A DNA stretch of 62,690 nucleotides. Source: a virus. This document shows positions 20,116-43,169 of the stretch, piece after piece. The number at the start of each line of letters is the position of its first letter. Within the stretch, counting starts at the first letter, position 1. A model generated the notes under the pieces. It was not told the DNA's origin and did not search any database. It saw only the letters and a program-made list of their open reading frames with translations. Location: positions 1-62,690 of IMG/VR virus record IMGVR_UViG_3300048915_000098; one strand, given 5' to 3'. The translations under genes were made by a program, and so were the position numbers.

Positions 20116-20318
20116 AGGTCACGCTCACGAAGTGGGCGGCGGCGCGATACGATCCGCTGCCCAGCCTCTGGACGCTCAGGAGATGGGCGCGTGAGGGCGA
20201 ACTGCACCCTCCGCCCGAACTGGTCGGGAAGACGTACTACATCGACGAGAACGCGCGCCGACTGTCCATCCCTGAACCGAAGGCCACGCTGGTCGATCGC
20301 ATGAAAGCCACCGCGTGA
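20112..20318 (+). CDS. xis: Excisionase (lambda Xis-like)
   Basis: MKVTLTKWAAARYDPLPSLWTLRRWAREGELHPPPELVGKTYYIDENA resembles lambda Xis. Lies directly upstream of int. Confidence 0.75.
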   Translation: MKVTLTKWAAARYDPLPSLWTLRRWAREGELHPPPELVGKTYYIDENARRLSIPEPKATLVDRMKATA

Positions 20319-21403
20319 ACGCAGCACGTCGCTCCCGCCGCAAGCAGGACTGGCCGCGAGGCCTGTACGAGCCGCGGCCCGGCTACTTCGTCTGGAGGCA
20401 CCCGAAGACCGGCGAGACCATGGCCATCGGCCGCACGACCGTTGCCGACGCGCGCAACCAGGCGTTGGCAGCGAACCAGCACGTTCTGGACACTGCGCCG
20501 ACGCTGATCGAGCGGATGGAGGGCAGGGAGCACACGGTCGCGGATGTGCTGGACGTGATGCCCGAAGCCGAGAACGCCAACACGGCGAAGTCGCAGCGCT
20601 CGCTGGACAAGCGCATCCGTGCAAAGCTGGGCGGCAAGCACTGCGGCCGGCTGTCGGTCAGGGACTGCGCCGACATGCTCGATGAGATTGTCGAGGACGG
20701 CCACGCGCGCACGGCTCAGGCGGTTCGTTCACGGCTAATCGTGGTGTGCAAGAAGGCGCTGGCCAAAGGCTGGATGGAGAGCAACCCGGCCGAGGTGACG
20801 GAGGAGATCGAGGTCGAGGTCAAGCGCGGCCGGTTGACGCTCGAGATGTTCCATGCGGTCTACGAGAACGCACCCGAGGTGTGCGAATGGCTGCAGGCGG
20901 CCATGCGCCTGGCGCTCGTCACGGGCCAGGACCGGTCCACCATCTGCGACATGGAGCGATCACACGTCGCCGATGGCTTCCTGACCGTCTGGCGCACGAA
21001 GACCCGCGAGACCAATCAGCCCGTCGATATTCCCCTCGCGCTGCGCCTGGACGCGGTGGGCTGGTCGCTCGCCGACCTGGTCAAGCCGCGAACCGGCGTG
21101 CTGTCGAAGTACCTCGTCCACCACGTCCAGCCTTGGGGCAACGCGCCGGCGGGCTCGCCGATCCACGTCAACGCCTTGTCGCGCAGCTTCACCGAGGCCC
21201 GCATCCTGGCCAAGATCCCGGACGTCGGGCCAGACGGCAAGGGCGCGCCGACGTTCCATGAGATCCGGTCGCTGTCGAAGCGCCTCTACGCCGCCCAGGG
21301 CGGTGTCGACACCAAGGCCCTGCTCGGCCACAAGACCGACAAGGCGGCAGACCTGTATGCCGACCCGCGAGGCGTCGAACACATCCGTGTGCGCATCGCC
21401 TGA
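20315..21403 (+). CDS. int: Tyrosine integrase (lambda Int family)
   Basis: 362 aa, GTG start. The C-terminus has HEIRSLSKRLY...LLGHKTDKAADLY (the R..H-x-x-R..Y catalytic pattern). Confidence 0.9.
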   Translation: MNAARRSRRKQDWPRGLYEPRPGYFVWRHPKTGETMAIGRTTVADARNQALAANQHVLDTAPTLIERMEGREHTVADVLDVMPEAENANTAKSQRSLDKRIRAKLGGKHCGRLSVRDCADMLDEIVEDGHARTAQAVRSRLIVVCKKALAKGWMESNPAEVTEEIEVEVKRGRLTLEMFHAVYENAPEVCEWLQAAMRLALVTGQDRSTICDMERSHVADGFLTVWRTKTRETNQPVDIPLALRLDAVGWSLADLVKPRTGVLSKYLVHHVQPWGNAPAGSPIHVNALSRSFTEARILAKIPDVGPDGKGAPTFHEIRSLSKRLYAAQGGVDTKALLGHKTDKAADLYADPRGVEHIRVRIA

Positions 21404-21653: not shown

Positions 21654-22022
21654 ATGGCATTGAAGCGATCGCACGTCATCGCCGGCACCGTCCTGGCGCT
21701 GCTGGCTTTGGCGTCGCTGGTTCGTGGAGGGGAGACGGGGGCGCGGCCGGAGGCTGCGCAACCCCCGCTTGAACGGTCGGTGGCAGCCGCCGCGGCGCGC
21801 GCGCGGGCTGATCTCCCGATCAATCCGCGCATCCTGAAGGTCGGCGCCAACCAGGTGCAGGTCATCGACATCCCGTCGATGGTCAGCCCGAAGTCTGCTC
21901 TGGTGGAGACGCGCCGCTGCTACGTGTGGCGCGACCTCGAATTCCGTACGGCGTCGGTCACCTGCCCGGAAGATGGTGAGATGCTGCCAGCGGCCGGGCC
22001 TCCGCCCAGCGGCGAGCGCTAG
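21654..22022 (+). CDS. Secreted/membrane-anchored small protein next to attP (122 aa)
   Basis: N-terminal signal/anchor VIAGTVLALLALASLVRG; good codon bias. Converges on the giant gene with overlapping stops. Confidence 0.6.
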   Translation: MALKRSHVIAGTVLALLALASLVRGGETGARPEAAQPPLERSVAAAAARARADLPINPRILKVGANQVQVIDIPSMVSPKSALVETRRCYVWRDLEFRTASVTCPEDGEMLPAAGPPPSGER

Positions 22023-25000
22023 TCTTCGTCCGCCGTCGCCGCGGCCTTCTCGGTCTTGACGGCTTCCCGCTTGCGCTCGGCATCGAGCAGCTCGTTCATC
22101 TTCTCCAGGTCGTCGTCGCTAGCGCGCTGGCTGAAGCGACGGAAGGCACCCGCGCTCAAGCGGGACTCCGGCATCTGCAGGTGTCGCAGCGTGGTCATGA
22201 TCTGCGACGGCGGCATCTTGATGCCCTCGAGGAGCGCGATCGCCTTGTCGTCGTCGCCATCCTTGATGGCCTGCTTGACCTGGGGCATGACGTCCATCTT
22301 CGCGCCTTCGAACTTCCGGTCGGCGGCGTACATCTGGCCGACGGCCGGGCCGCCCGGTGCACCCTTGCTGAATGTCAGGCCGGCAAACGGCCCCACGGTC
22401 TTGAGCTTGTCGACGTCGGTGGCGGTGCCCTTCTTCCAGTCCCAGGCGCCGGCGATCGCGTCGGCCGGGATCATCTGCGTGGCGAACAGCTTGGCGATGC
22501 GGCCGGCGTTCGTCAGCACGCCGCCCAGGCCGGGAGCGTCGGGGTCGTAGATGCGCTGGCCGATGCCGTTGTCGTTGTTCCAGACCTGCTGGAGCGGCCG
22601 CACGAGTTGGCTTTCCTTGGCCTTGGCCGTGACCAGCGGCTTGGTGATCCAGTTCTTGAAGTCCTCGCCGACCTTGCCGGTGGGCAGGCGCATGTAGATC
22701 GCCGTGCCATCGGCCGACGTGCCCACGCGGATCCGGTCTTCCTTGCCGGGCTCGTTCTCCGAGGTCGACGACAGCGCGTTGACGGCGTCGAAGGGGTTGC
22801 TCAGCGTGTCCAGCGGGTGGTCGCCGGCGCGCTTCAGCAACTTGTGCAGGCGCTCGGCATACCCCTGACCGACATCACCCCAGGTCTTCTTGTCCTTCCA
22901 GTGCTCGAAGGCGCTTTGCATCAGGGAGTTGCCGACGTACATCAGGCCGATGTCCAGGATGAACGAGGCGATTGCGATGCGGCGCGCGCGCGAGGTCGCG
23001 GCGGCCGCGGCCAGCTCGCCGGCCGACACCTTGATCTGCGCGCGGACGTCGCGCGGCAGGCCGGTCATCATGTCCTTCATCAGGCCCATGTTGCCCAGGG
23101 TGAAGGTGCGCGAGAACATCAGCAGGTTGGCCGTGCGCCGGGCCGCCACCGACATCGCCTCGTTGGGCAGCGCGCCGGCGAAGCGGTTGGCGAAGTGGGC
23201 GGCGACCTTGCCGGCGGCGGCCGGATCCATCCCCTTGGAGATCTCGTGCTCGCGGATCGAGCCGTACAGTCCCGCCTGCAGGTCACCCACGCGATCCCAC
23301 AGCAGGGTGTTGTGCCAGATGTCGCCGGCCCGGTCGATCGCCTTCTTCGCCGCGGTGCCGGCCTTCTCGCTGGCCAGCCCGAGCGCGCCGCCGATCAGCT
23401 TGGCGGTCCAGCTCCGGCCCGGCGTCAGGCTCGGATCCTCCATGATCCCGGTGATGTCCTGGATCCCGCCGCGCCGGCCAATGGGCACCAGGCCGTCGGA
23501 GATCGCCTGGCGCATCTGCGCCGGGTCGTTCTTGATGCGGTTGCCCTCGAAGTAGATCTGGAACGTCGCTACCTTGCCGGGCATCGCCGGCAGCGCGCGG
23601 CCCCACTCCACCGCGTTGTGGATCAGCGGCGAGTACATGATGAGGCCCATCGACTTGCCCTTGAGCGCCATCAGGGCGTTGTAGATCTCGTTGGGCTTCT
23701 CGGTCATGACGGCCTTCAGCGGCCCCTCGAAGTCCTTGGAGACGTACAGCGGCACCCGCTCGAAGGTCTTCGAGCCATCCTCGTTCGAGGTCACCCGCCA
23801 GGTCTTGAGCGCCGGGCTGTCGAAGGTCACGAAGCCCGGCTCCTCGCTGGTCGACACCGTCTTCATGCCGGCCTTGTCGCCGTAGGCCTTGATCTGGTTG
23901 ACCAGCTCCCGGCCGGCGATCGCGCGCTCGAGCCGGGACATGGCCAGCGGCATGGTGCGGATGTCGCGGACGAGCTGCGCGCCCTCGCCCAACTTGCCCT
24001 TCATGGCGGCCTCGGTGTCCTCGGCGGTCAGGTGCTTGCGGCCCTTGAGGCTGCTCGCCGTCGTGACGATGTTGCGGCCCTGGGTGCCGCTGCCCTCGAC
24101 GTTGCCTCCCTTCGGCCGCGAGTACTCGCCGGCGCCGTCGATCATGACGGCCATCCGCGGCGTCCAGTACGGCAGGCCCTCGCCTTCGAACATCCCGACC
24201 GCCTTGGCGCGCTGCAGGAGCGATTCACCGTAGTTGTGCAGTGCGTCGACGGTGGCGCGTTGGTCCGGGGTCAGGCGGTTCAGGCCCTCGCCGGGCCCGG
24301 GTTCCTTGCCCTGCTGGCGCAGGACGCCCTCTTGGTCGGCCGCCTCCCACATCTCGCGGCGCTGGGCCTCGTCGTAGTTCTTGGCGATGACCGAATCGAA
24401 CTTGTCCCATTGCCAGCGCGCGAGGCGATCGGCGTTGGCGAAGTCCTTGACCAGCGCGCGGGTCTGATCGGTGCCCAGCGCCATGGGCGCGGTGATTCGG
24501 ACTGCCTCGTCGCGCAGCTTGCGGGCCGCGTCGGCAGCCGTGGCCGCGGCTTCGCGCACCTTGCCGAAGACCTCGGCCAGCTTGGATGGTTCGTGGATGT
24601 CCGGAACGTCGCCGGACTCATCGCCGGCGTGCTGACTCAGGAGCGGGGCGTCGCCACCGGCGTCGCTTTGGCGAACGCCTTCTTGCCGAACTCGTTCAGC
24701 ATGCGCTTGTGCTGCCGCAGCGACTCGATTTCGGAGCTCGTCAGCATTCCGGAAGCCAATGAGGTATCCCGCCTCGGCGCCGGTGAGGGCGCGGGGGTCG
24801 ACGTGAAGTTCGTCGCGGACGGTTTGACCATATCGGCTTTCAATCTCGGCGGTTTGTCGCTTCGGCGCAACCATTGTAGGTGCACGGCTGGCGTCTGCCA
24901 AGGTGGCCACCCCTACAACCTCGCCGCCGCCGGCGCGGATGTGATCCGCCAGTTCCGCGAGGGTCCCGCCCATGGTCGTCACATCGTCGACCACGACATA

Positions 25001-28000
25001 CTTGCGGCCCGGCTCGACCTGGCCGCTGAAGTCGGGGCGCGCGACCATCCGCTCCATCGCGTTGGCCCCTGTGTGGAACGCTCGATTCGTCTGGACGATG
25101 TCGGAGTCGACCTCGCCACCTGTCTCTGCGGCGTACTTGTGGGCGAGCATCGCCGGAATCGCGTTGCGTCCGCTTGCCTCCTCGGCGTGGGGATACGCAT
25201 AGACGATTCCCGGGCCAAGCTTTCGTGCAGCTTCGATGTCCTCTGCCTTGACCAGCGCGTTGACCACGCGCACCGCGGCATCGGGGTCGCCAGCCTTCGC
25301 CGCCTTGTAGTCGGGCTGGGCTTTCAGGTCGTCGACCGCAACACCGCCGCCGAGCTCCTTCGCGCCCTCGGGGATTCCCTGCTCACGCACCGGCCGCGAG
25401 GTAGCCGGCACAAGGTCGCCCGCCACCTCGCCTCCGCCGGCGTCCGCCTCGACCGCGCGCCGCGCGCGCGCCAGCAGCGCCGCCGTCTCGGCCTCCGTCA
25501 TCTTCTCCAGTTGGTCGGCGACGCTATGCAGGCCCACGCTGCGCAGCCACTCCTGGATCTTGGCCATGAGCTTCTGCAGCCCGCGGATCGGCTCGCCGCG
25601 GCCGGCGCGGTCGGCCAGCGCCTCCTCGGTGGACAGCGCGCGGACGACCCGCATGGCTGCCTCCTGCGACAGCCCGCGGCTCATGCGGTCGGCGATGGCG
25701 CCGCGGCCGTGGGCTTGCATCCACGCCTCCGCCTCCTTCGCCAACTCCGGATTGGCCTGGCGGAGCTTGTACATCTCGGCGAAGTAGGTGGCGTCCGAGC
25801 CGAGCACCTTGCGGATCCCGTAGTGGCCCAGCACCTCGTGGAACAGCGCGGCCTGCGCCATCGGCACGTCCTTCAGGCGACTGGCGATGAGGTAGACGTC
25901 GCCGGGATCGCTGCCGCGGCCGGGCATCAGCAGCGCGCGGGTCTTGCCCTCGGCGCCCATCGAGCGCAGAGAATCCTGGATGTGGTTCGGCAGGCCGTTG
26001 ACGTCATCGACGACGTGCACCGGAGGCGCGTCCTTCCAGCCGGCTTGGATGCGGGTGACCTCGGCGCGCAGGACATCAGGGGAGACGCCCTTGCGCACTG
26101 GCTCAGTCGACTGCTTCAACCGAATGTCAGCGCTTTCCGGATCGAAGGTGCCGCGGTTGCCGATCGCGCTCTTGACCTGCTCGGGATCGAAGGCGATGAA
26201 AACGCGGTGCTTGGTGCTGTCACCCTTGATGCGGCCGCCGCCGATGTGCGTGATGCCGTCGTAGCCCATCGACCGCAGGCCTTCCTGCATGATTTCGGCG
26301 CCCTCCCACTTGGGCAGGCCTTCGTCGATCAGGTGATCCTCGGCGATCCTGTAGAAGTCCTCATTGGTGTACGTCTCGCCGTTGCGCGGCTTGCGGTCGG
26401 TGTTTTCGAAGTCAACGTCAGGGAAGGCCTTTTGCCACGCAGACAACTCGCGCGTGACAGGCTTGTCCATGTCGATCGGGTTCTTGATCGACAGGTGCAC
26501 CGGGTAAACGGTAGGCGACTTGCCCTTGCCCTTCGTCGTGTAGTCGCTGGCGATCTTCGGGTCAGCGGTGAAGTAGGAGCCCTGGCCGAACAGCCCGTGC
26601 TCGGAGGCATAGGAGTCAAACGCCGAGAAGGCGTCGCCGTCCTCGGTCTTGCTCGTGCCGTGGAACATCACCTGCGGCTCGCCGTGCTCATCGACGACCT
26701 TGCTGTCGCCGAACCACTTCTTGAACTCCGGAGTGCTGGTGGTGCGCCGCGCGAGTTCCGCGCGAGCAACGTCCCGCGCACGCGCGGTGGCAGCGGCGGA
26801 GTCAACGATCTTCGCGAGCTTCTCGTCCGCCCACTGGTCGACCGGCTTTCCGAGCAGCCGCGGCGCAGGCTCGGCCGGCATCAGTGCCGCGTCGGCTCCG
26901 CCTCCAACGTCCACAGCAGCAGGCGCTCGAGCACCGGCTGCAGGTGCGGCGGCATCTCCACCGACTCCTCGTGCTCCGGCGACATCAGCATTCGATCCCA
27001 GATCTCCGCCGCTTGCGACAGCAGGACCACCTCCGCCATCACCGGCTCCAGCAGGTACTCCGGCAGGCTCTGCCACGTCAGGCTGTGCGCGCTCATCGGT
27101 CGGGCTCCATTGCGTGATGTCGCCCAGCGGCTTCGACTTGACGCCGTCGCGCACCCAGGCCTTGAAGGCGTCCATCGGCAGTGGGGTGATCGCGCCCAAG
27201 CCGTTCCACCCGTCGGCGTAGTTCGCGGCGTAGAGCTGGCGCGCCTGCGCCTCGCTGTCGGCGCCCAGGATGGTCTTGGGCTCGTCGAACTTGCCGGTGG
27301 CGGGGTCGACCTGGTCGATGACGTAGGCGATCTTCGATTCGGGATTCGGGCCGATGAAGGTGTCGACGTGATCGCCGTCGTTTGCCCTGGTGCCGCGGAT
27401 AAACCCATAGTGGGCCTGCATCTCGTTCGACCACGGCTTGCCATCCGGATCGACGCCGGACCGCACAGAGCCTTGCGGGTTCTCGATGGTGATGTCCAGC
27501 CCGTGCAGTTGGACGTGGCCCATCGGGTAGTTGCCCGCTGCCTTCTGCGCGTCGGTCGGCTCCGGCCGGTCGTTGAATGGTGACGTGGCGGCCTGGTGCG
27601 CGGCGTCGGCGATGTCGTTCGCCTGCGCCATCGCAGTCGGCGCGATCGGCGCAGGTGCAGCATCCTCGGGGGCGGCTGCATCGTGGGCCGGCGTGGGTTC
27701 CGGCGGCCGGATGGCGGCGAGCTGGTCGGCCACGCTCGACTTTCCCGCCTTCGGTGTCGGCGCGGCCGCGGGCTGCTCCGGCTGTTGCGCGGCGACGCGC
27801 TGAGCCAGCGCGTCCCGGAACGCTCCGGGTGCGCCGGGCTTGGTCGTCAGACCGTTGGCCTCCATGCGGTGGAACGCGCGCGCGACGAAGGTGGCTGCGT
27901 CCTGCGGATCACGCTGGGCGGCAGCCTCGCGCAGCGCGGCGGTTGCCTTCGGGGACAGGCCGACGGTTCGCGCGGCCTCATCGATCGAGTCGTGCAGGGT

Positions 28001-29317
28001 GTCCAGGCCAATCGGCCCGGGTGCCGGCGGCGCGGCCGCAGTCGTGTCGGCTGTCGTGGTCGGCGTCGCATCGGCCGGCGGCGGGTTCGCGCTGTCGATC
28101 TCGCGCGCCGCCGCGGCGTTGCCGTCGCCGTGCGCCAGCGAGTGCGCAGCATGGAACAGGTGGCCGGCGGCCAGCGGCACGCCCGGCACAGCCAGCGTCA
28201 GGAGCGTGGCGGATTTCGCCGTCGCGGCGATGTCGTGCAGCATGTCGTCGGCGGACATGTTCGGCTTGAGGCCGCCCGGCGCCATCTTGTCGTACAGGTC
28301 GCCCAGGACGGTCGTCGCCTCCATCCCGCCCACGTTCGTGGTCAGCGCGTGGCCGAGCGCGGCGATGGCCTGGCCAGCCGGTGCGCCCGACACCGCCTTC
28401 GTCAGCGCGCCGGTCAAGCCTGGAACCTGCGTGCGCAGCCCGACGTAGTTCGCCAACGCCATGGCCGTGCCGCGGCTGACCGCTTCGCCGGGCGAGTCGC
28501 CGGCCTGCCGCGCGTCGGCGTACCCGTCGACGCCGGCCTGCGTGACCATCGCCCCGAGGCCGGCCGGCCCTGCCACCAGCGGCGCGAGACTGAAGACGCC
28601 GGCCACGGTCTTGACCGTGTCGGAATCCTCGTTGCCCTGCATCGCGCGGTTGATGCGCGCGTCGGCGGCGGCCTGGTACTGCCGGCCGAGAGTGCGCAGG
28701 CCTTCGGTGTCGGTGACCTCGCCCGCGGTGGTCATCAGGTTGGCCAGCGTCTTGCCGGCCTGCCCTGCCGCGGCGTTGTAGCCGGCCTGCACCGGGTTCT
28801 GAGGGATGTCGTCCCAGGCCTTGCGGCGCGCGGCCGCCTGGTCGATCGCGACGGCTTCCGTGTGCGGGATCACCGGCTTGGTGACCGGCGCGGGCGGCCC
28901 GACGGGAATACCGCCCGCCGAGGCCGCGTCGATCATGTCGGCATGGGACATCGGCGCAGGTGCAGGGGGCGGCGCGGCCACGGTCGACGTCGCGAATGGG
29001 CTTTCTCCCGCTTCGCTGGAATGCGCGAGCGAGGCCAGCCCGGACTTCACGCTGTCGACGGCGCCGGACGCGGCGTCCGCGACGCTCGCGGCGGCCGACT
29101 TGATCGTGCCCATGACTGAATCGGCGAGCGATGGCGCGGGCGCTGCGGCGGCCGCGGGGGGCGCCGCCTGCCGGCCGCCGTCGATGTTGGCGATCCCGCG
29201 GCCACCGAAGTCCGTCGCGGCGCGCGCGGCGACGTCACCCGGGGTCAGGTCATCGGGAGCGTTCTGGTAGACGTGGCTGGTGCCGTCGGCGAAGGTGACC
29301 GTGATGTTGCGCGGCAT
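22019..29317 (-). CDS. Giant polyvalent virion/ejection protein (2,432 aa)
   Basis: One uninterrupted ORF. Pyrophosphatase-like motif DGDHVDTFIG (27350..27379). ART-like WFGDSKVVDEHGEPQVMFHGT (26654..26716). HEVLGH (25823..25840). PRTase-like VVVDDVTTMGGT (24962..24997). Hydrophobic C-terminal third. Confidence 0.9.
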   Translation of the reverse strand: MPRNITVTFADGTSHVYQNAPDDLTPGDVAARAATDFGGRGIANIDGGRQAAPPAAAAAPAPSLADSVMGTIKSAAASVADAASGAVDSVKSGLASLAHSSEAGESPFATSTVAAPPPAPAPMSHADMIDAASAGGIPVGPPAPVTKPVIPHTEAVAIDQAAARRKAWDDIPQNPVQAGYNAAAGQAGKTLANLMTTAGEVTDTEGLRTLGRQYQAAADARINRAMQGNEDSDTVKTVAGVFSLAPLVAGPAGLGAMVTQAGVDGYADARQAGDSPGEAVSRGTAMALANYVGLRTQVPGLTGALTKAVSGAPAGQAIAALGHALTTNVGGMEATTVLGDLYDKMAPGGLKPNMSADDMLHDIAATAKSATLLTLAVPGVPLAAGHLFHAAHSLAHGDGNAAAAREIDSANPPPADATPTTTADTTAAAPPAPGPIGLDTLHDSIDEAARTVGLSPKATAALREAAAQRDPQDAATFVARAFHRMEANGLTTKPGAPGAFRDALAQRVAAQQPEQPAAAPTPKAGKSSVADQLAAIRPPEPTPAHDAAAPEDAAPAPIAPTAMAQANDIADAAHQAATSPFNDRPEPTDAQKAAGNYPMGHVQLHGLDITIENPQGSVRSGVDPDGKPWSNEMQAHYGFIRGTRANDGDHVDTFIGPNPESKIAYVIDQVDPATGKFDEPKTILGADSEAQARQLYAANYADGWNGLGAITPLPMDAFKAWVRDGVKSKPLGDITQWSPTDERAQPDVAEPAGVPAGAGDGGGGPAVASGGDLGSNADVAGARGVGGDAAAPAAGARAPAAVDVGGGADAALMPAEPAPRLLGKPVDQWADEKLAKIVDSAAATARARDVARAELARRTTSTPEFKKWFGDSKVVDEHGEPQVMFHGTSKTEDGDAFSAFDSYASEHGLFGQGSYFTADPKIASDYTTKGKGKSPTVYPVHLSIKNPIDMDKPVTRELSAWQKAFPDVDFENTDRKPRNGETYTNEDFYRIAEDHLIDEGLPKWEGAEIMQEGLRSMGYDGITHIGGGRIKGDSTKHRVFIAFDPEQVKSAIGNRGTFDPESADIRLKQSTEPVRKGVSPDVLRAEVTRIQAGWKDAPPVHVVDDVNGLPNHIQDSLRSMGAEGKTRALLMPGRGSDPGDVYLIASRLKDVPMAQAALFHEVLGHYGIRKVLGSDATYFAEMYKLRQANPELAKEAEAWMQAHGRGAIADRMSRGLSQEAAMRVVRALSTEEALADRAGRGEPIRGLQKLMAKIQEWLRSVGLHSVADQLEKMTEAETAALLARARRAVEADAGGGEVAGDLVPATSRPVREQGIPEGAKELGGGVAVDDLKAQPDYKAAKAGDPDAAVRVVNALVKAEDIEAARKLGPGIVYAYPHAEEASGRNAIPAMLAHKYAAETGGEVDSDIVQTNRAFHTGANAMERMVARPDFSGQVEPGRKYVVVDDVTTMGGTLAELADHIRAGGGEVVGVATLADASRAPTMVAPKRQTAEIESRYGQTVRDELHVDPRALTGAEAGYLIGFRNADELRNRVAAAAQAHAERVRQEGVRQSDAGGDAPLLSQHAGDESGDVPDIHEPSKLAEVFGKVREAAATAADAARKLRDEAVRITAPMALGTDQTRALVKDFANADRLARWQWDKFDSVIAKNYDEAQRREMWEAADQEGVLRQQGKEPGPGEGLNRLTPDQRATVDALHNYGESLLQRAKAVGMFEGEGLPYWTPRMAVMIDGAGEYSRPKGGNVEGSGTQGRNIVTTASSLKGRKHLTAEDTEAAMKGKLGEGAQLVRDIRTMPLAMSRLERAIAGRELVNQIKAYGDKAGMKTVSTSEEPGFVTFDSPALKTWRVTSNEDGSKTFERVPLYVSKDFEGPLKAVMTEKPNEIYNALMALKGKSMGLIMYSPLIHNAVEWGRALPAMPGKVATFQIYFEGNRIKNDPAQMRQAISDGLVPIGRRGGIQDITGIMEDPSLTPGRSWTAKLIGGALGLASEKAGTAAKKAIDRAGDIWHNTLLWDRVGDLQAGLYGSIREHEISKGMDPAAAGKVAAHFANRFAGALPNEAMSVAARRTANLLMFSRTFTLGNMGLMKDMMTGLPRDVRAQIKVSAGELAAAAATSRARRIAIASFILDIGLMYVGNSLMQSAFEHWKDKKTWGDVGQGYAERLHKLLKRAGDHPLDTLSNPFDAVNALSSTSENEPGKEDRIRVGTSADGTAIYMRLPTGKVGEDFKNWITKPLVTAKAKESQLVRPLQQVWNNDNGIGQRIYDPDAPGLGGVLTNAGRIAKLFATQMIPADAIAGAWDWKKGTATDVDKLKTVGPFAGLTFSKGAPGGPAVGQMYAADRKFEGAKMDVMPQVKQAIKDGDDDKAIALLEGIKMPPSQIMTTLRHLQMPESRLSAGAFRRFSQRASDDDLEKMNELLDAERKREAVKTEKAAATADED

Positions 29318-29320: not shown

Positions 29321-30619
29321 TTACCAGTTCGACACCGAGGGAACGGCTGCGCTGGCGGCCGGCTTGGGCACGAGGCCGGGCGCCGGGCCCGGAGCCGGCG
29401 GCGGCGTACCGGACAAAGCCTGCATCGCCGCGGCTCGCAGGTCGGCATCGCTCTTGTTCATGTTGTGGGGATCCTGGCGGGCAGCCCGTACCAGCCCGTC
29501 GACGCGCTTGGCGTACTCGCCCGATCGCACCGGCTGACCATTGACGGTCGCCCGCTGCATCGAGCCGTCCTTGAAGACGTTGACGACGTAACCGTCTGCG
29601 TCGGTGATGGTCTTTTGCACCTTCTTGGCGCCATCGACCCCGCCGCCGGCGCGGATCCCCGCCGCGTCGACGCGGCCCTGCGCGGTGATCCCCGCAGCCT
29701 CCGTCTCCGCGCCAGCGCGGATGCCGGCCGCGCCGAGGGTGGCCTTGTTGTTGCCTTCGGCGACCTTCTCGCGGCTGGTGTTTTCGAGGCCGATGCCCTG
29801 CAGGTGGAAGCCGCCCTTCACGTTCTCCGTGAGCCGGTCCTGCTCGCCCTTGGCCTGGGCTTCGATCTTCTTGGCGTTCGCCTCCTGGGCAGCCTTGGCC
29901 GCCAACAGGCGCGACTCGTACTCGTACTTCGCCGCGTCGGCCGGATTCATCATCACGTCGTGCGCCATGCTCGCGATCTGATCGCCGGTCAGGGTATGGG
30001 TCTGGCCGTCAGAAGTGGAGATCCTGTAGACGGGCGTGGTCGGCTGCGGCTTGAACTGCGTCGGGTCGTTGCCGGCCGCCACCCAGGCCTGGCGCTGTTG
30101 CTGGATGGCAGGGCTGGCGCCATCCGTGCCGCCCGCCCCGTTGTCCACCGTGATGCCGGTGATGTCGACGCCATCGTGCACCGTCGGATAGACGGTCTGC
30201 GCCAGCGCGGCGCCGTCTCCCGTTGCCTGGTAGTCGGCCAGCGCCTTGCCGATCACCTGCTGGCGGATCTGGTTGCGAATCGGCGCCGTAGCCGCTTCGT
30301 TCTTCGTCCACAGATCGAGGTCGCCGCTCTTGGCAATCGCGTCGCTGCGGGCATGCAGGCCGGCCAGCAGCACGGGTGCCGACATCTGGAACGGCTTGGG
30401 CTGGAACGTCGACGGGTCATTGCCGGCGTCCGTCCACGCCTTCTGCTGCTGGGCGATGTCCTGGTCGTGGGCGTCCTGCAGCGCCTGCGCACCGGCGGCG
30501 TTCGCGTCATTGATGACCTGCAGTTGCTTGTTCTGCATCGCCTGCTGCTTTTGCTGGTCATTCCAGGCGACGCCCTCCTGGTAGCCACGAAGGGCGTTCG
30601 TCAACCCGAGTCCGCTCAT
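29321..30619 (-). CDS. Internal-virion-like protein (432 aa, Gln/Ala/Gly-rich)
   Basis: ORF-track ORF, directly upstream of the giant gene. Internal repeat QKAWTDAGNDPSTFQPKP / RQAWVAAGNDPTQFKPQP. Confidence 0.7.
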   Translation of the reverse strand: MSGLGLTNALRGYQEGVAWNDQQKQQAMQNKQLQVINDANAAGAQALQDAHDQDIAQQQKAWTDAGNDPSTFQPKPFQMSAPVLLAGLHARSDAIAKSGDLDLWTKNEAATAPIRNQIRQQVIGKALADYQATGDGAALAQTVYPTVHDGVDITGITVDNGAGGTDGASPAIQQQRQAWVAAGNDPTQFKPQPTTPVYRISTSDGQTHTLTGDQIASMAHDVMMNPADAAKYEYESRLLAAKAAQEANAKKIEAQAKGEQDRLTENVKGGFHLQGIGLENTSREKVAEGNNKATLGAAGIRAGAETEAAGITAQGRVDAAGIRAGGGVDGAKKVQKTITDADGYVVNVFKDGSMQRATVNGQPVRSGEYAKRVDGLVRAARQDPHNMNKSDADLRAAAMQALSGTPPPAPGPAPGLVPKPAASAAVPSVSNW

Positions 30620-31515
30620 GCTGTTCCTTTCGCGGCGCGGCGCGCCTTGGCCGCGGCGATCTGCTTGCCGAGGCTGTCGATCTGCTTCTTCAGTTCCTGG
30701 ATGGCAGCGATGTGCACGCCGTTGGTGTCGACCGGGTGCGCGCAGTCCAGGCCGCGCTGCATGGCCGCCTGCGTGGCGCCGCGTGTCTTGACCGACTTCG
30801 ACGACTGCGCGATCTGCTGGTCGAGCTGCGACACCAGCCCGGCGTAGCCTTCGGCCCCCTGCACGGTCACGGGCTGCACCATCGGCTGCTGGCGCCTGCG
30901 CTGCTGTTGCTGGGGTCGGAACTGCTGTTGCCCGACGGTCGGAGCCTCTTGCGCGGGGCCGTAGCCCTGAGTGAGCCCAGGTTCCGCACCTTCAGCGTCG
31001 ACGGCAGCCGAGTCCGCTGCAGCCAGGCCGGCCACGTCACCCCCGCCAGCGCTGGCACCGACATCACCGGCCGTCAGGCCCAGGCCGGTGGAGGCGGCCG
31101 ACGAATCAGCGGCCCCGAGCGTCCCGGCAGAACCTCCCATGGCGGTGCCTTCACCACCGGCAGCAAGCCCTCCGCCGCCTGCACCACCAGCACCGCCAGC
31201 GGCCCCGCCCCCACCAAGCGCTGCACCACCCGCCATCGCGCCCGCGACGATGGCCAGTGCATCCCCCGGCTTGCTGGCGATGATGTCGCCCGCCCTGTTG
31301 ACGATCGGGATCTTGCGCACCGGATTGATGGTCTTGTCGACCTTGTCGAACGGCTTCATCACCGTCGACAAGCCGGAGTTGACCTTTTCCGGCAGGACGG
31401 TGCTGGTGAGCTTGGTCGACTTGCCGCCCGTGATCCAGGAGATCGGGTTCAGGTACTTGTCGCCATACCCGCCGATCTTTCCGAGGATCGAGCTGTGATC
31501 GAGCCACTTGGTCAT
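30616..31515 (-). CDS. Internal-virion-like Gly-rich protein (299 aa)
   Basis: ATGA overlap with the next gene. Long GGGGAAGGAGGAGGGG tract. C-terminal helix HIAAIQELKKQIDSL. Confidence 0.7.
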   Translation of the reverse strand: MTKWLDHSSILGKIGGYGDKYLNPISWITGGKSTKLTSTVLPEKVNSGLSTVMKPFDKVDKTINPVRKIPIVNRAGDIIASKPGDALAIVAGAMAGGAALGGGGAAGGAGGAGGGGLAAGGEGTAMGGSAGTLGAADSSAASTGLGLTAGDVGASAGGGDVAGLAAADSAAVDAEGAEPGLTQGYGPAQEAPTVGQQQFRPQQQQRRRQQPMVQPVTVQGAEGYAGLVSQLDQQIAQSSKSVKTRGATQAAMQRGLDCAHPVDTNGVHIAAIQELKKQIDSLGKQIAAAKARRAAKGTA

Positions 31516-32693
31516 GCCAGCGCCGCCAGTTCGCGCTTCATCGCCGCCACCTGCTTGGCGAGCTGTGCGATCGCCTTGCCGTTGACCTCGGACATCGCGC
31601 CCATGTCGATCGCCTTGCCGCGGGGCGCAACCGCATCACCGAACGCTGCATGCACGTCCTCGGCGTAGGGGCCGACGTGGTCGCCGGAATCCTCGACGCC
31701 CTTGTGATACTTCCAGCCGTCTACCGGCATCTTGCCGTTGGTCAGGCCCTCGAGCGCCTTCGGGCCGCTGACCCGGAGCGTGCTGGGCTTGGCCTTGACC
31801 GTCTGCTTGGCGGCCGGCGCGCCGCCGGCGACGAGGCCCTCCAACGCCGCCTTGCCGTCGACGCGCGAGATCTTGGTCTTGGCGGTCTTCGTGGACGTCG
31901 CAGTGCCGCCGTGCATCCCGTACGCCATCGCCCCTGCGCCGATCAGGTCACCGAAGAAGCCCTGATTGGCGGAGGCGGCGCCCTGCTGGAGTTGGTTGAA
32001 TCCAATGAGCCCGTTGACACCGGCACCGAAGGCTGGGGTCGAAGTTGTCAACGGTGCGGCCGTAAGACCCGATGCACCGCTCACGCTTCCTTGCGCGGCT
32101 TGGCCTGAACTTTGCGCCGCGCCAGCCGCCTGGAGGCTGGCCGTCGGCAGGCCGCGGCCGATGTTGACGGCGCTTCCCTGCAGGTTGAGGCCCGTGTTCT
32201 CGACATTCGTGCGCGCGGCATTCGCGGCCCCGGCCTTGGCCGTGGCCTCCTGCAGGTTGAGCGCGTTGTTCAATGCGAGGGCCTTGCCGCTGCCGGCCTG
32301 GACGCCGCCCGCCTGGAGCTGGTCCGCCTGCTGCGCGCGCGCCGTGTCGAACGCGGTGCCGACTTGGCCCTCCGCGGTCTGGGCGGCCTGCTCCTTGCGG
32401 CCGTCGGTGGCGTAGTCGGCCGCCTCGGTGGCGTACTGGCCTTCGAGCGGCTGGAAGTATTTGCGATAGTTCGCGTACTGGTCGGCCGCCTGCTGCGTTT
32501 CCTGCTGCTGCGCCGCGGTGTTGGAGGCGACCTGCTGCTGGAACAGCGGCATGTATTGATCGAGCAGCGCTTTCTGGTCCTGATATTCCTGCTTGCTCAG
32601 GGCGATCTGGTTCAGCGATGCTTGACCAATTTGTGGGTCTGGGGTCGGTGTTTTGACTTTGATGATGCTCTCCTTAGAGGGTGCAACCCTCAT
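31512..32693 (-). CDS. Internal-virion-like Gln-rich protein with an S74-chaperone-like C-terminus (393 aa)
   Basis: Trimmed from the 452-aa ORF. ATG 32693 lacks an obvious RBS, and a strong AAGGAG at 32671..32676 suggests the true start may be a few codons downstream. Confidence 0.65.
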   Translation of the reverse strand: MRVAPSKESIIKVKTPTPDPQIGQASLNQIALSKQEYQDQKALLDQYMPLFQQQVASNTAAQQQETQQAADQYANYRKYFQPLEGQYATEAADYATDGRKEQAAQTAEGQVGTAFDTARAQQADQLQAGGVQAGSGKALALNNALNLQEATAKAGAANAARTNVENTGLNLQGSAVNIGRGLPTASLQAAGAAQSSGQAAQGSVSGASGLTAAPLTTSTPAFGAGVNGLIGFNQLQQGAASANQGFFGDLIGAGAMAYGMHGGTATSTKTAKTKISRVDGKAALEGLVAGGAPAAKQTVKAKPSTLRVSGPKALEGLTNGKMPVDGWKYHKGVEDSGDHVGPYAEDVHAAFGDAVAPRGKAIDMGAMSEVNGKAIAQLAKQVAAMKRELAALA

Positions 32694-33525
32694 GAAGACG
32701 GCGCTTCGCCGCAACGTAGGTTCGATGAGCCTCTTCGGCGGTGTCAAAGGTACCGAGGTTGATTGCCTTACCCCGAACCTTGATGGCTGATTTGAAGCGG
32801 CCACCGTGTGCGTGCGCACCCAGCAACCCGGTGCTGTTGTTTGCCTGGGCGCGCCGCCTGTTCTCCGCATTCACCCGCCGGCTCACGTCACGCAGGTTCG
32901 CCCATCGATTGTTCGATCGGTCAGTGTCCCGGTGGTCGACATCAGCCTTTGGCCACTCGCCTGTGACGATGACCCAGATCAGCCTGTGCGCAGCGTAGGT
33001 CTTCCCGTCGATTTCGACCATGACATAGCCGTGGCTCTTGACGCTTCCGGCGAGTTGCCCTACTTCGACATTGCTGTATTTGGTGGGCTTGCCGGCCCAA
33101 CGCAAAAGACCCGTGCCCGCCTCATACGTGAACAACGCTCGCAGCATTGCTTGCGCAGCGGCCCCATCGCGAGGAATCCTGATCTTCGTTCGGGTATCGC
33201 CATAGGCTTTGAACCTGGCTGCGAGATGGTCTGCCTTCGGGCGATCCTTCAAGTTGACCCAGCGGTTGTCCGCGTGCGTGTCGTTTTCGTGAGTGACCTG
33301 GAACTGCGGCCATCGGCCCGTCATGTACAGCCAAGCCAAGCGATGCACCGCATGCGACTTTCCGTCCACGCACGCATACCTGTAGCCGTCCGTTTCATTG
33401 ACTCGGCCGATCTCATCGCCAACCTTTGTGCGATTCGATAGCGAAATGCGTCGAGTCATCACGCCCGTCTCCGGGTCGTAGTGAACCAGCTCGCGCAGGC
33501 GCTCGGCGCTCAGTTCTTGAGCCAT
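32674..33525 (-). CDS. HNH_3 x2 + AP2 homing endonuclease
   Basis: Two ~110-aa tandem modules ending THENDTHADNRWVNL and VDHRDTDRSNNRWANLRD. C-terminal AP2-like GRFKSAIKVRGKAINLGTFDTAEEAHRTY. Start taken at ATG 33525. Confidence 0.8.
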   Translation of the reverse strand: MAQELSAERLRELVHYDPETGVMTRRISLSNRTKVGDEIGRVNETDGYRYACVDGKSHAVHRLAWLYMTGRWPQFQVTHENDTHADNRWVNLKDRPKADHLAARFKAYGDTRTKIRIPRDGAAAQAMLRALFTYEAGTGLLRWAGKPTKYSNVEVGQLAGSVKSHGYVMVEIDGKTYAAHRLIWVIVTGEWPKADVDHRDTDRSNNRWANLRDVSRRVNAENRRRAQANNSTGLLGAHAHGGRFKSAIKVRGKAINLGTFDTAEEAHRTYVAAKRRLHEGCTL

Positions 33526-33929
33526 CTGCACTCTTCCTTCAACATCCGGTACATCCACCCCGGCTCGTCACCGAACCAGGCCTCAAGGGGAGCCTCGAAT
33601 AGAAAGCCCATCTTCACGAGCGCGCGCTGGGCATCGGTGTTTGACTCGCGCGTTACCGCGGTCAGGCGCTTGCAGCGCCACTCGACGAATGCGATGTGAA
33701 ACACGTTGCGCAGGAACGTGCGCCCGCCCATTGCGTGGGCGCGATCGAACCACACCGAGAATTCGGCTTTGGTGCCAACGGAGATGTCGGAGAACACCGC
33801 TTGCCCGTGAATCCCCTCGGCGCTTGCTGCCGTCAACACCTTGTCGCCTTCCTCGTGGCGGAAATGCCCGCCTAGCTTCTCGCTGGCGTGAAGGAATAGA
33901 GCCGGAGATTGATCGTTCCAGACATACAT
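33510..33929 (-). CDS. GNAT-family N-acetyltransferase-like protein (139 aa)
   Basis: RLTAVTRESNTDAQRALVKMGFLFEA matches the GNAT C-terminal motif pattern (V...N..A..L..K.GF). Confidence 0.55.
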   Translation of the reverse strand: MYVWNDQSPALFLHASEKLGGHFRHEEGDKVLTAASAEGIHGQAVFSDISVGTKAEFSVWFDRAHAMGGRTFLRNVFHIAFVEWRCKRLTAVTRESNTDAQRALVKMGFLFEAPLEAWFGDEPGWMYRMLKEECRWLKN

Positions 33930-33978
33930 GGTCTACCCCAATATGTCAGGGAAGCCCGCGAAACTCAACGGAAGTCGG

Positions 33979-34611
33979 TCAGGGCCAGGTGATCGCCCGG
34001 ACGGCGTCCGTCGTGGTGGCCGCGCGCACGGCCGCCTTCAGGTCCTGCAACTGCGCGAAGGCGGCGAAGCCATGATTGGCAAGCGCCGCGGCCAGACCCT
34101 GCAGGTCGGCGTAGGTGAACGGCGTCACCCGCGTGTTGTCCTTGGACTGCCAGAAGTAGCCCTCGGGCACCGCCTGCGCTGCCTGGAAGCCCAGGAGGCA
34201 GGATGACAAGTCGCTGACCGATTGCGGGTCGGCCTGATACATGCGGGTGTCCCCGGCGGCCGTCGTGAACGAGACATCCGCGGCGATCGCGCGAGCGTAG
34301 GCGGCGTCGAGCAGCGCGCACTGGCGGATCTGCACGGCGGCCAAGGATTGCGACTCGTCGCTGACGACCGCGGCGCCGTCGAATGGCGCGATGCTGGCGA
34401 GAGCCGAGTCGAGGTCGGAGAGCGCGCTTGGCGTGGCCGCAATCGGCCACATCCAGGCCAGATTACCGCCAGCGTTGTGTGCGTCCTCATCGACCCAGCT
34501 CGCGACGTTCACAGCGACGGTGCCGCCGACGGGGTCATAGTTGACCTGCATGGCCTTGTGAAATCCGACCGAAGCGCCATTCGGCGCGGTGATGTCTTTG
34601 AGGAGGGGCAT
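33979..34611 (-). CDS. DUF4376-like tail-fibre-associated protein (210 aa)
   Basis: Trimmed from the spurious 449-aa ORF to ATG 34611. YFWQSKDNTRVTPFTYADLQGLAAA...LKAAVRAATTTDAVRAITWP is a DUF4376-like pattern. Confidence 0.6.
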   Translation of the reverse strand: MPLLKDITAPNGASVGFHKAMQVNYDPVGGTVAVNVASWVDEDAHNAGGNLAWMWPIAATPSALSDLDSALASIAPFDGAAVVSDESQSLAAVQIRQCALLDAAYARAIAADVSFTTAAGDTRMYQADPQSVSDLSSCLLGFQAAQAVPEGYFWQSKDNTRVTPFTYADLQGLAAALANHGFAAFAQLQDLKAAVRAATTTDAVRAITWP

Positions 34612-35342
34612 CAGGTGAGTCCGTTGGCTTCGATGAGGATTCCGGTGCAGGCGCCACGGAATAGGCTTGGTGTCACGCCTGAGTCGCTGTTTTCGTAGGA
34701 GTCCAGGTACTCCGCACGGTGCAACTGGTTGTCGCCGGTCCAGTGCCACATGCCGCGGTAGCCCTGATTGACGTAGCTCACGCCGCTTCCGCTGGAGGTC
34801 TTCTGTTCGTACCAGGGCTTGCCGATGATCGCTGGCTTCGTCAGCACCGGGATCGTTGTCGCCAGCACGCTGTCGGCCAGTGCGATCCGCGACGCGGGCG
34901 TCAGTGGCATGCGACTCAGGTCTCCGGTCAATGTGCCCGCGGCGTTGTAGAGGGCAACGCCGAACGCTGGCAGCGAGCCCGGGAACCCGAACACGTAGAC
35001 GTCGGTTGTCGTGTTCTGCGCGTCGTAGGTTCCGCCAGAGGATGGGGAAACGGAACCCGTTCCACCGTCGTACGTCGTGATGGTCCATGTGCTGCCGGAC
35101 TTGCTCATGCTGAGCAATGCGACGCCGGTCTGGCCCGAAGACTTCAGGCCAAGCGCCACCAGGATCGGTCCGGAGGACGTGAACGTCCAGGTGCTGTAGC
35201 CGGATGTGCTCGAGAGGCTGTCGACGTTCTGCGCCGGCGTCGACGAGACGAATGTGGCCTTGCCGAGGTACCCGAACGTGTAGGCCTCGGACGAGATGGT
35301 GAGCTCGCCCGTGGACGCGTTGGTGCACTGGATCCCGAACAT
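34611..35342 (-). CDS. Tail-associated hypothetical protein (243 aa)
   Basis: ORF-track ORF. Ser/Thr/Gly-rich and beta-rich; its N-terminus is paralogous to the next gene. Confidence 0.6.
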   Translation of the reverse strand: MFGIQCTNASTGELTISSEAYTFGYLGKATFVSSTPAQNVDSLSSTSGYSTWTFTSSGPILVALGLKSSGQTGVALLSMSKSGSTWTITTYDGGTGSVSPSSGGTYDAQNTTTDVYVFGFPGSLPAFGVALYNAAGTLTGDLSRMPLTPASRIALADSVLATTIPVLTKPAIIGKPWYEQKTSSGSGVSYVNQGYRGMWHWTGDNQLHRAEYLDSYENSDSGVTPSLFRGACTGILIEANGLT

Positions 35343-35626
35343 CAGAAGACCACCAAGATGAATGAGAAGGCCGCAGGAGCGCCCGACGACACGGTCACGA
35401 CGGGGTATCCCGAGGACATGCTCAATGACGTGAGCGACTGGCCGTAGCCATTGCCGCCCGCGTCAAGGATGAACGCCGAGAAGCCAGCCCATTGCGGGTA
35501 GCTCAAGGTCGTGCCGCTGAAGCCTGCGGAGTACTGCTGGTAGTCGGCTGCGACGCCGCCCATGGCAGTGGTCGAATCCCACAGCAGGCCGCCCGAGGCG
35601 TCGAAGATCTGAACCCCGAAGGTCAC
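35342..35626 (-). CDS. Tail-associated hypothetical protein (94 aa)
   Basis: MTFGVQIFDASGGLLWDS resembles MFGIQCTNASTGELTISS of 34611..35342. Confidence 0.5.
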   Translation of the reverse strand: MTFGVQIFDASGGLLWDSTTAMGGVAADYQQYSAGFSGTTLSYPQWAGFSAFILDAGGNGYGQSLTSLSMSSGYPVVTVSSGAPAAFSFILVVF

Positions 35627-36972
35627 GAGAGGTCACCGATCTTGACCCGGCAAACGTTGGACGAGTCGTAGACGCGGATCTTGTTGTCCTGCACTTCGGT
35701 GCGCTGGCCACTCGATGCGGTGCGCAGGGTGCCAATCGTGGCCGAGATGGCGTCAAGCTGCGTGACGCTGATCTTCGAGGCGGTCACCTGACCGGCGCCG
35801 ATCTGTGATGCGACGAGCTGATCGCGGATCATCGCGAACGAGAACTCCGCGGTGCCGTTGCCCAGGATTCGCCAGCCCGTCGAGCCTGCGGTGAAGCCGG
35901 TGCTCTGGATGTACTGGCCCACCGCGATAGAGCCCGCGGTCAGCTTTCCGGCGGAGACGTTGGCAATCTTGGCGTCGTCGATCGCGGCCGAGCCGATCAT
36001 CGCGTTGACGATCGCGCCGTTCTGGATCGCCGCGGTGCCGACGGCGATTGCGTTCGCTGCGATCGCGCTTGCCGTCACGGCACCCACCGCGAGCGAGCCG
36101 GCAATGATGCTGCCGGCAATCACATCGGCGCCGTCGACTGCCTTCGTGTAGGCCGTGCCGTTCCAGCGATAGAGCTTGCCGTCGGTGGTGTTGAAGATCG
36201 TCTTGGTGACCAGCGTCGACGGCACCGAGGAGACGACCGAGACGGGTTCCACGCCGGCCGCGAACTTGGTGGCGTCCACAGAGTTCGCGCCCAGCTTGGC
36301 CAGCGTCACCGCGCCGTTGGCAAGATTGCCTGCCAAGACAACGAGCGGCCCGAGGTCGGCGCTGCCTACCTTTCCGGTGGTGGCCGACACGCCGTTGGTC
36401 CCGCCAGTGGGGCCAGCGCCGTCGACCTGCCGCACGCCGTCGACCGTGACCGCTCCAGCCCAGAAGTGCGTCTCCTGACCGGTCTGCGCGGGGATGATGG
36501 CGATCGTCGCGGCGCCAGTGACCTGGTAGACCTCGACGGCGTCGGCGAACGTGGGCAGCGGGCCGGTGCCGGAATAGTTTGCCGCGTAGATCTGCGTATA
36601 GGCGTTGCCGTGGCCCTGCGTGTAGGCCGGCGCGTCGAACTCGACGAAGAAGTTCGTCAGGCCGGGCGTGACCGTCAGCCCCGTGATCGAGTCGGGTGCC
36701 GAAAGGTCTGGCGTGCTTCCGCCGCCGCTGACACCAGAACCACCGCCGGCCAGCGTACCGACGCCGAACGATCCGCCGGTTCGGTACTCCAGGACGTTGA
36801 GCCCAACGAGCTCGCCGCGGGTGACGAACTTCTGCAGCGAGTCGCCCTTGGCAATCGGCTCGCGCGTCATGGCCTGCGTGCGCAGGTTCTGCAACCACTC
36901 GATGACCTGGTCGAGCGATGCCCCCGTGGGGAGTTCCGGCAGATCGGGAACGACCGGCGGCGTGCGGCTCAC
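35623..36972 (-). CDS. Tail fibre / host-specificity (J C-terminal-like) protein (449 aa)
   Basis: FN3-like ITGLTVTPGLTNFFVEFDAPAY...YTQIYAANYSG, then DGKLYRWNGTAYTK and repetitive AGSI(A/I)VG... segments. Confidence 0.7.
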   Translation of the reverse strand: MSRTPPVVPDLPELPTGASLDQVIEWLQNLRTQAMTREPIAKGDSLQKFVTRGELVGLNVLEYRTGGSFGVGTLAGGGSGVSGGGSTPDLSAPDSITGLTVTPGLTNFFVEFDAPAYTQGHGNAYTQIYAANYSGTGPLPTFADAVEVYQVTGAATIAIIPAQTGQETHFWAGAVTVDGVRQVDGAGPTGGTNGVSATTGKVGSADLGPLVVLAGNLANGAVTLAKLGANSVDATKFAAGVEPVSVVSSVPSTLVTKTIFNTTDGKLYRWNGTAYTKAVDGADVIAGSIIAGSLAVGAVTASAIAANAIAVGTAAIQNGAIVNAMIGSAAIDDAKIANVSAGKLTAGSIAVGQYIQSTGFTAGSTGWRILGNGTAEFSFAMIRDQLVASQIGAGQVTASKISVTQLDAISATIGTLRTASSGQRTEVQDNKIRVYDSSNVCRVKIGDLS

Positions 36973-38585: not shown

Positions 38586-38591
38586 GGTCGT

Positions 38592-39949: not shown

Positions 39950-39962
39950 TCGGGCTCCAATG

Positions 39963-39986
39963 AAAAAAGCCCGCGACGTGCGGGCT
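39963..39986 (-). terminator. Hairpin plus T6 (minus strand) between the accessory cassette and the adaptor-like gene
   Basis: Minus strand: AGCCCGC-ACGTC-GCGGGCT followed by TTTTTT, only 14 nt upstream of ATG 39949. Confidence 0.5.
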
Positions 39987-43166: not shown

Positions 43167-43169
43167 GGC

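Follow-up and report, generated by a model that had tools for sequence, protein, structure and literature searches.

We describe here a giant gene in a 62,690-nucleotide stretch of viral DNA (IMG/VR record IMGVR_UViG_3300048915_000098, positions 1 to 62,690; this whole stretch is called the window, and positions are counted from its first letter). Its 2,432-residue product contains a phosphoribosyltransferase (PRTase)-like module and a module resembling inorganic pyrophosphatases, named InPase. An earlier note on this DNA had recognised both modules in one injected polypeptide and proposed that they act as a pair. In our analysis both signature motifs are encoded by a single open reading frame (ORF) on the minus strand, and the product belongs to the phage polyvalent proteins as defined by Iyer, Burroughs, Anand, de Souza and Aravind (J Bacteriol 2017, PMC5512222), a class already described. 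The gene and its parts are listed below.

22019..29317, minus strand: whole gene of the 2,432-residue polyvalent protein, end gene of the late structural operon (ORF list and translation)
27152..27553, minus strand: InPase domain, residues 589-722, family I-type pyrophosphatase of polyvalent proteins (PF18823, E 1e-53)
27350..27379, minus strand: DGDHVDTFIG, predicted metal-binding motif, residues 647-656 with D647, D649 and D652 (reverse-strand translation)
24656..25396, minus strand: type I PRTase domain, residues 1308-1554, of an invasive-element, ComF-like family (PF00156, phrog_22413, AlphaFold2 model)
24962..24997, minus strand: VVVDDVTTMGGT, predicted loop binding phosphoribosyl pyrophosphate (PRPP), residues 1441-1452 (reverse-strand translation)
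26144..26692, minus strand: ART-PolyVal ADP-ribosyltransferase (ART) domain, residues 876-1058 (PF18760, E 9.4e-21)
25388..26110, minus strand: protease-like module, residues 1070-1310, with HEVLGHYG at residues 1160-1167 (25817-25840; conserved HExxGHxG)
22022..24565, minus strand: C-terminal 'chassis' domain, residues ~1585-2432, ~850 residues, unannotated (conserved in relatives)
27626..29317, minus strand: N-terminal region, residues 1-564, Ala/Pro-rich (24% Ala, 10% Pro; composition)
26708..27085, minus strand: Gly/Ala-rich low-complexity linker, residues 745-870 (26% Ala, 16% Gly)

Both motifs lie exactly where the earlier note, which gave no strand, had put them. Its module limits fit as well: 24727-25312 corresponds to residues 1336-1530, inside the PRTase domain, and 27100-27565 to residues 585-739, covering the InPase domain. 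The minus strand is taken as the coding strand because the GC content at third codon positions of the giant ORF is 0.88 (the GC content of the window is 66%); its start ATG lies 3 nt past the stop codon of the upstream gene. Translation of the motif coordinates on the plus strand yields stops only, and this reading was rejected. So was an 1,800-residue ORF at 22181-27583 on the plus strand, an antisense shadow of the kind typical in high-GC coding DNA. The gene gave no megablast match in 50,697 isolated-phage records, and an exact-sequence look-up of the protein returned no identical record.

Polyvalent proteins are giant proteins of phages or plasmids that combine numerous unrelated enzyme domains. 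Packaging and injection are predicted for them, and processing by a zincin-like peptidase is frequent among them, though not universal (PMC5512222). InPase and PRTase were both described in 2017 as domains of such proteins, each in a section of its own (PMC5512222). The present protein unites InPase, ART-PolyVal and PRTase, which are disparate activities, in one ORF encoded with virion genes in a phage or prophage, and its scanned relatives carry LPD38 (PF18857), a domain named for polyvalent proteins. It thus resembles the phage-type members of the class (PMC5512222) in its giant multi-enzyme build, its virion gene company and these same three domains. It differs from them in that the chassis of ~850 residues matches no Pfam LPD or other family, in that neither a MuF nor a portal fusion is present, and in a protease-like module unseen by Pfam. 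Four Pfam matches were obtained in the protein, namely PF18823, PF18760, PF00156 and a sub-threshold PF00719 match on the DGD region; residues 1-564 gave no Pfam match at a cut-off of E <= 10.

For the InPase domain, PF18823 scores 181 bits against a cut-off of 26.8 and is covered over positions 1-134 of its 135. The AlphaFold2 (AF2) model is a beta-barrel with a predicted local distance difference test score (pLDDT) of 86.7, and all 50 matches listed by Foldseek are family I pyrophosphatases (PPases), with probabilities mostly of 0.94-1.00 and a TM-score of ~0.44. In the profile-to-PDB alignment, IENPxGS...YGYI...DGDHVD pairs with IEIPKGQ...YGFI...DGDPLD of mycobacterial PPase. Across 32 InPase domains E612, R619, Y637, D647, D652 and K681 are invariant, D649 is Asp or Glu in 31 and D678 is Asp in 30. 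Profile, model, structure search and conserved residues hence agree on the pyrophosphatase-like module with its DGDxxD signature, as the earlier note had read it.

With family I soluble PPases (PF00719; E. coli and M. tuberculosis Ppa) the module shares the oligonucleotide/oligosaccharide-binding (OB) barrel fold, the IExPxG and YG elements, the DGDxxD motif with its DxDxxD acidic ligands, and the later Asp and Lys. It differs from them in the lack, in the profile alignment, of a counterpart to a stretch of ~10 residues of the mycobacterial enzymes, and PF00719 stays below threshold (12.3 bits, cut-off 23.5). This gap fits the published description of polyvalent InPase as devoid of the beta-hairpin that classical PPases have between core strands one and two (PMC5512222). 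The missing mycobacterial segment holds 'DR', which would be the substrate-binding Arg of the hairpin. The set of residues that binds inorganic pyrophosphate (PPi), to which this hairpin Arg belongs, is incomplete in the module, and the substrate of the module may be something other than PPi.

InPase was reported to be confined to phage-type proteins and to be sometimes fused to portals (PMC5512222). It was found by us in 464 isolated-phage records, mostly of Pseudomonas phages, and in PHROGs its region falls within numerous families of giant proteins whose annotations read DarB-like, minor head or virion structural. Only one PDB entry is related to InPase in sequence, the gp19 portal of the Pseudomonas phage Pa193 (9b41 chain L). 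There the domain occupies residues 635-763 at the C-terminus, with E 1.4e-29 in a single-sequence search and 3e-50 in a profile search, a further link of the giant protein with virions. Portal-InPase fusions of Pbunavirus-type phages (Pa193 gp19, BcepF1.124) hold the same InPase family inside a virion protein; unlike the protein described here, they have it joined to a portal and carry no PRTase, and the domain is unresolved in the cryo-EM map. The cryo-EM paper on Pa193 reports residues 529-765 of gp19 as lacking density and mentions no pyrophosphatase. As a side observation, Pa193 is a therapeutic Pseudomonas phage, the InPase domain that closes its portal has the catalytic signature, and 294 Pseudomonas phage records carry InPase.

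The PRTase domain passes PF00156 only marginally (residues 1405-1478, 27.1 bits, cut-off 26.3), and roughly half of its relatives score under that threshold; phrog_22413 matches residues 1330-1542 with E 1.9e-56. The loop VVVDDVTTMGGT follows the type I pattern of a hydrophobic strand, two acidic residues and xx[ST]xG[GSA][ST]. An alignment with 31 relatives of 43-54% identity shows an invariant DD pair, together with the GGT loop, HTGA, an Arg in 'MER' and an 'HAxEAxGxNAIP' segment. Among 151 PRTase domains drawn from clusters of no more than 50% identity, D1444 and R1423 are each kept in 150, D1445 and G1450 in all 151, and T1452 is Thr or Ser in all 151. A DD motif and a ComFC-like conserved Arg are what had been described for the polyvalent PRTase, solo versions of which are common (PMC5512222). 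The acidic residues of both modules are thus retained near-invariantly in their homologues, and the loss of them that the earlier note had named as a refutation was not observed.

The AF2 model of the PRTase, for which the alignment with the 31 relatives served as input, has a pLDDT of 92.7. Foldseek against the PDB gave 68 matches at E <= 0.001, and all 50 listed belong to the PRT family (PRTases, PRPP synthetases, PurR); a PRTase fold and a family I PPase fold were therefore both recovered by structure prediction. PF00156, phrog_22413, the model, the structure search and the conserved residues bear out the PRTase-like module of the earlier note. For the subfamily, which the note had left between ComF-like and Apt/Hpt-like enzymes, the structure search gave a divided answer: among the matches listed, H. 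pylori ComF (7p0h_A) has the highest TM-score (0.54, root-mean-square deviation 3.5 Å), adenine PRTases come first by E-value, and ShosT with PRPP-Mg (8zvc) ranks fifth. A fold search of BFVD with the PRTase found distant giant-virus and phage PRTases only.

Word-indexed homologue searches had returned short solo proteins only for both modules, a picture that was misleading until an exhaustive profile search was made. With the PRTase alignment as query, this search yielded 2,568 representative clusters at the 50% identity level, 971 of them at E <= 1e-30 and the top ones with E near 1e-107. The profile matches of the two modules thus lie well outside what chance would give. Among the best 150 of the 2,568 clusters, 112 are proteins of 1,000-5,093 residues and 38 are short. 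The family is thus large, with most best hits within proteins of 1,000-5,000 residues, and it is near-absent from isolated phages (2 of 50,697 records), because of which a cultivable example would be a useful handle. One of the two records, Burkholderia phage vB_HM795 (L001, 7803-8789), has a solo PRTase of 328 residues directly beside an integrase, with a DNA methyltransferase beyond; the window is arranged similarly (positions 12620-14584 and 20315-21403), with the giant gene close to an integrase.

The closest solo PRTases (~50% identity) lie in conjugative elements: P0012 (JGI sample 3300075153, gene 10001-11065) and L159 (10001-10999). One solo PRTase stands in a Trb/VirB operon of a type IV secretion system (T4SS), in the order TrbI, PRTase, TraF-type peptidase and then a TraG-type (T4SS-DNA_transf/TrwB) coupling protein; another adjoins a resolvase on a contig that also bears LPD7 and TrbM genes. 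The database name 'conjugal transfer protein TraN' given to solo PRTases is probably a positional mis-annotation derived from such an operon position.

Between the two modules lie the ART domain (75.5 bits for PF18760, cut-off 31.2), with at least 579 related stretches in IMG/VR, and the protease-like module, the HExxGHxG motif of which is kept across 75 homologous regions (H1165 in 75/75, G1167 in 72/75). The linker at residues 745-870 has no homologues among the compared relatives, and residues 160-585 are common only to the relative P0249.

The C-terminal chassis was found in 69 IMG/VR and 8 GTDB loci (L002-L078) at 31-58% identity, mostly in alphaproteobacterial metagenome-assembled genomes (MAGs) and genomes, plus one Terracidiphilus MAG. 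It has no Pfam, PHROG or PDB sequence match (PDB by profile search) and contains a single hydrophobic segment, residues 2114-2132. Most of the 63 chassis-anchored proteins with a complete 5' end are 1,130-1,350 residues long; none has a PRTase and three have InPase. The majority are therefore chassis only, and a minority bear long, variable N-terminal cargo. In a few relatives InPase stands behind the chassis, at the extreme end of the protein (L054/L074 ORF, residues 1662-1825; L060 ORF, residues 4353-4519), so cargo is attachable at either end.

The surroundings of the chassis were judged from PHROG matches in three loci. In L015 and L019 the product of the directly upstream gene is an internal virion protein that contains a transglycosylase domain (phrog_342), and tail proteins come before it; in L009 only tail proteins were seen, and the directly upstream gene has no PHROG match. 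A tblastn search with the structural proteins of the window against the 77 chassis loci found almost no conserved neighbours. Given the internal-virion neighbours in relatives and the variation of the cargo, the chassis is probably an internal-virion or ejection-cluster protein that acquired a variable effector cargo. In the window itself the giant gene is flanked as follows.

29321..54727, minus strand: upstream late operon with TerS, TerL, portal, major capsid protein, tail-fibre-like proteins, SU10-like adaptor, internal virion protein and virion structural protein (PHROG and Pfam matches)
20315..21403, plus strand: integrase adjoining the giant gene (phrog_7244, E 1.2e-43)

The source is a temperate podovirus-like phage or prophage, as marked by the integrase beside the giant gene. 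Virion delivery of the protein appears plausible from the gene context, given that the late structural operon closes with this gene and that the chassis sits in the internal-virion cluster of related podovirus-like contigs. The latter is the strongest argument for injection, though an indirect one.

To judge how far InPase and PRTase belong together, we compared the 112 long representatives named above with a background of 80 ART-anchored giant ORFs from IMG/VR. InPase is present in 31 of the 112 long PRTase proteins (28%) and in none of the 38 short ones, against 13 of the 80 ART-anchored ORFs (16%); a single ORF of the latter has a PRTase, and that one also has InPase. The odds ratio of 31/112 versus 13/80 is ~2 with p = 0.08, and since the two samples differ in length distribution, the enrichment is a hint at most. 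In 30 of the 31 proteins InPase stands on the N-terminal side of the PRTase, and this order is a generic habit of InPase, because it also precedes the ART in 12 of 13. The gap between InPase and PRTase among relatives extends from 26 to more than 3,000 residues; in two relatives, P0184 and P0199, the domains are adjacent (gaps of 26 and 89 residues), and here ~585 residues, filled by the ART and the protease-like module, separate them. The closest relative, P0249, shares the N-terminal region and the protease-like module and has the best-scoring PRTase, with neither InPase nor ART. At two loci of solo PRTases in T4SS operons or conjugative elements no InPase was found nearby, and isolated phages stand at 464 records with InPase versus 2 with PRTase. 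Neither domain needs the other, and the two are best seen as independently acquired cargo with frequent, not obligatory, co-occurrence. The proposal that they form a dedicated pair, as it was put, is not supported by this comparison.

The reading that we favour, with a probability of about 0.65, is a polyvalent protein made of a chassis and swappable cargo (InPase, ART, protease-like module, PRTase), the modules of which are largely independent. It builds on established features: domain identities, folds, intact active-site signatures, the late-operon position and the variation of cargo between relatives. The giant protein would be packaged and would accompany the DNA into the cell. Cleavage by the protease-like module would split it into separate units, and the freed modules would then act largely on their own. 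The PRTase would bind Mg-PRPP and either transfer phosphoribose to some acceptor or sense a nucleotide at DNA entry, and in conjugative elements and most phage relatives it would work without a fused or neighbouring InPase. InPase, for its part, would hydrolyse PPi or a diphosphate-bearing nucleotide. Where both occur, removal of PPi may aid the PRTase as a bonus and not as a built-in two-enzyme device.

Several points weigh against this interpretation. Packaging, cleavage and injection of the giant protein are predictions. The protease-like module (residues 1070-1310) has no Pfam (E <= 10) or NCBIfam match, and because curated models are silent, its assignment to zincins or proteases is only what we infer. 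A catalytic role of the PRTase is likewise putative, since catalysis is undemonstrated even for ComFC and ShosT (PMC9005727, PMC11961720). The twofold enrichment of InPase among PRTase proteins could be real. Finally, combinations of a hydrolase with a PRTase, the hydrolases being non-homologous, recur in toxins and injected effectors, as ShosT and XopC1 attest.

A possible, if tentative, alternative is that the PRTase is no enzyme at all, and serves as a PRPP or nucleotide sensor or as a DNA-handling module acting on the incoming phage DNA, as proposed for ComFC. ComFC binds PRPP and single-stranded DNA, and its PRPP site is needed for passage of DNA into the cytoplasm, while transferase activity was not demonstrated (PMC9005727). 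The top TM-score of ComF, the canonical PRPP loop and the link with DNA entry make up the likeness, to which are added the solo relatives inside T4SS DNA-transfer operons and the Arg-rich helical C-terminal extension conserved in the PRTase family. For the polyvalent PRTase, the role of which was called "somewhat enigmatic", it had been proposed that a nucleotide is made or sensed as the DNA enters (PMC5512222). Against this, the module contains no Cys and so lacks the four-Cys zinc finger of ComFC, it scores 21.3 bits with the ComF model TIGR00201 (cut-off 233.55), it has other flanking helices, and it occurs in a phage or plasmid context and not in a competence operon. Near-invariance of the complete catalytic signature, with its two Asp residues, is as compatible with binding as with catalysis.

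Rather unlikely, in our judgement, is a dedicated couple in which InPase hydrolyses the PPi released by the PRTase and the two together deplete PRPP or make an unusual nucleotide, as a convergent, phage-delivered analogue of ShosT. ShosT, the toxin of ShosTA, has an N-terminal PPase-active hydrolase fused to a PRTase, and in the proposal of its authors the PRTase reaction is driven by hydrolysis of PPi; a DD mutant is non-toxic, a PPase mutant is only slightly less toxic, and no acceptor base was found (PMC11961720). Binding of PRPP is essential for its toxicity (PMC12961424). The giant protein and ShosT (8zvc/8zvd) have in common a PPase-type domain and a PRTase in one polypeptide and a DD-loop PRPP site; ShosT is among the top structural matches, and PADLOC gave weak ShosT matches (E 0.0024 and 0.019) in the region of the PRPP loop. 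The annotation of XopC1 reads PRTase plus HAD-like hydrolase, and the NCBIfam model NF041412 of the XopC/Rsp1239 effectors of type III secretion systems (T3SS) has a weak 105-residue match to the module (E 7e-5, far under cut-off). The higher share of InPase in long PRTase proteins and the adjacent domains of P0184 and P0199 point the same way.

On the other side, the p value is 0.08, 72% of the long and all 38 short PRTase proteins are without InPase, P0249 lacks it, the ART and the protease-like module intervene here, and host cells possess a PPase of their own. The little toxicity lost by the PPase mutant of ShosT (PMC11961720) also speaks against coupling. The PPase of ShosT, moreover, has a Rossmann fold likened to type III soluble PPases (BT2127-type, haloacid dehalogenase (HAD) superfamily) and abuts the PRTase, unlike the OB-fold family I type found ~585 residues away in our protein; ShosT belongs to the host and the giant protein to a phage, and the profile similarity is weak (E 0.0024). 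Membership in the ShosT-like PPase-PRTase toxins was rejected in view of the different PPase fold, the distance of ~585 residues and the weak PADLOC matches. XopC1/Rsp1239 (NF041412) are injected effectors that likewise have a PRTase and a phosphohydrolase-type domain, but the latter is HAD-like and not InPase, delivery is by T3SS into plant cells, and the score lies far below cut-off. As an observation apart, the XopC-like similarity (24683-25360, minus strand; module residues 59-163) covers more of the PRTase than any other curated model.

A bolder version of the same thought, which we consider quite improbable, takes hydrolase plus PRTase as a convergent weapon used on both sides, by the host toxin ShosT, by the T3SS effector XopC1 and by about a quarter of the PRTase-bearing phage polyvalent proteins. 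The phage would then inject a PRPP-consuming or nucleotide-making pair, rewiring purine and PRPP pools or neutralising a PRPP- or nucleotide-dependent defence at DNA entry.

It is more doubtful still that the giant protein is not delivered by virions and is made, and acts, in the infected or lysogenic cell. In favour of this, the gene lies at the operon edge beside the integrase, a typical place for a moron, as does the solo PRTase of vB_HM795 beside its own. The gene is nevertheless on the same strand as the structural operon and tightly coupled to the upstream gene, the chassis gene follows internal-virion and tail genes in relatives, and InPase domains occur as fusions with portal and head proteins.

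The least probable idea, by far, is a counter-defence related to nicotinamide adenine dinucleotide (NAD), in which the pair would rebuild NAD+ or destroy an immune signalling nucleotide: an NAD+-using ART is part of the same protein and phages do carry NAD salvage enzymes (PMC9503650), but phage NAD salvage uses a NadV-like PRTase of TIM-barrel type (PMC9503650), the present module has the ComF/APRT-like type I fold, and a PADLOC scan of both modules matched no family apart from the weak ShosT hits. A NadV/NAMPT-type (type II, TIM-barrel) PRTase was accordingly rejected from the AF2 model and Foldseek, and with it the NAD-related suggestion of the earlier note.

No experimental characterisation exists for the InPase or the PRTase of polyvalent proteins. 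Coupling of the two, if true, would mirror the ShosT defence toxin and mark PRPP metabolism as a battleground; as the evidence stands, the protein is a well-formed yet unremarkable representative of a class already known.

Elsewhere in the structural operon, flanked by tail and virion genes, lies a gene for a GNAT-type acyl-CoA N-acyltransferase (33513-33929, minus strand; phrog_4470, E 3.9e-18), which could be a moron or a further enzyme directed at the host.

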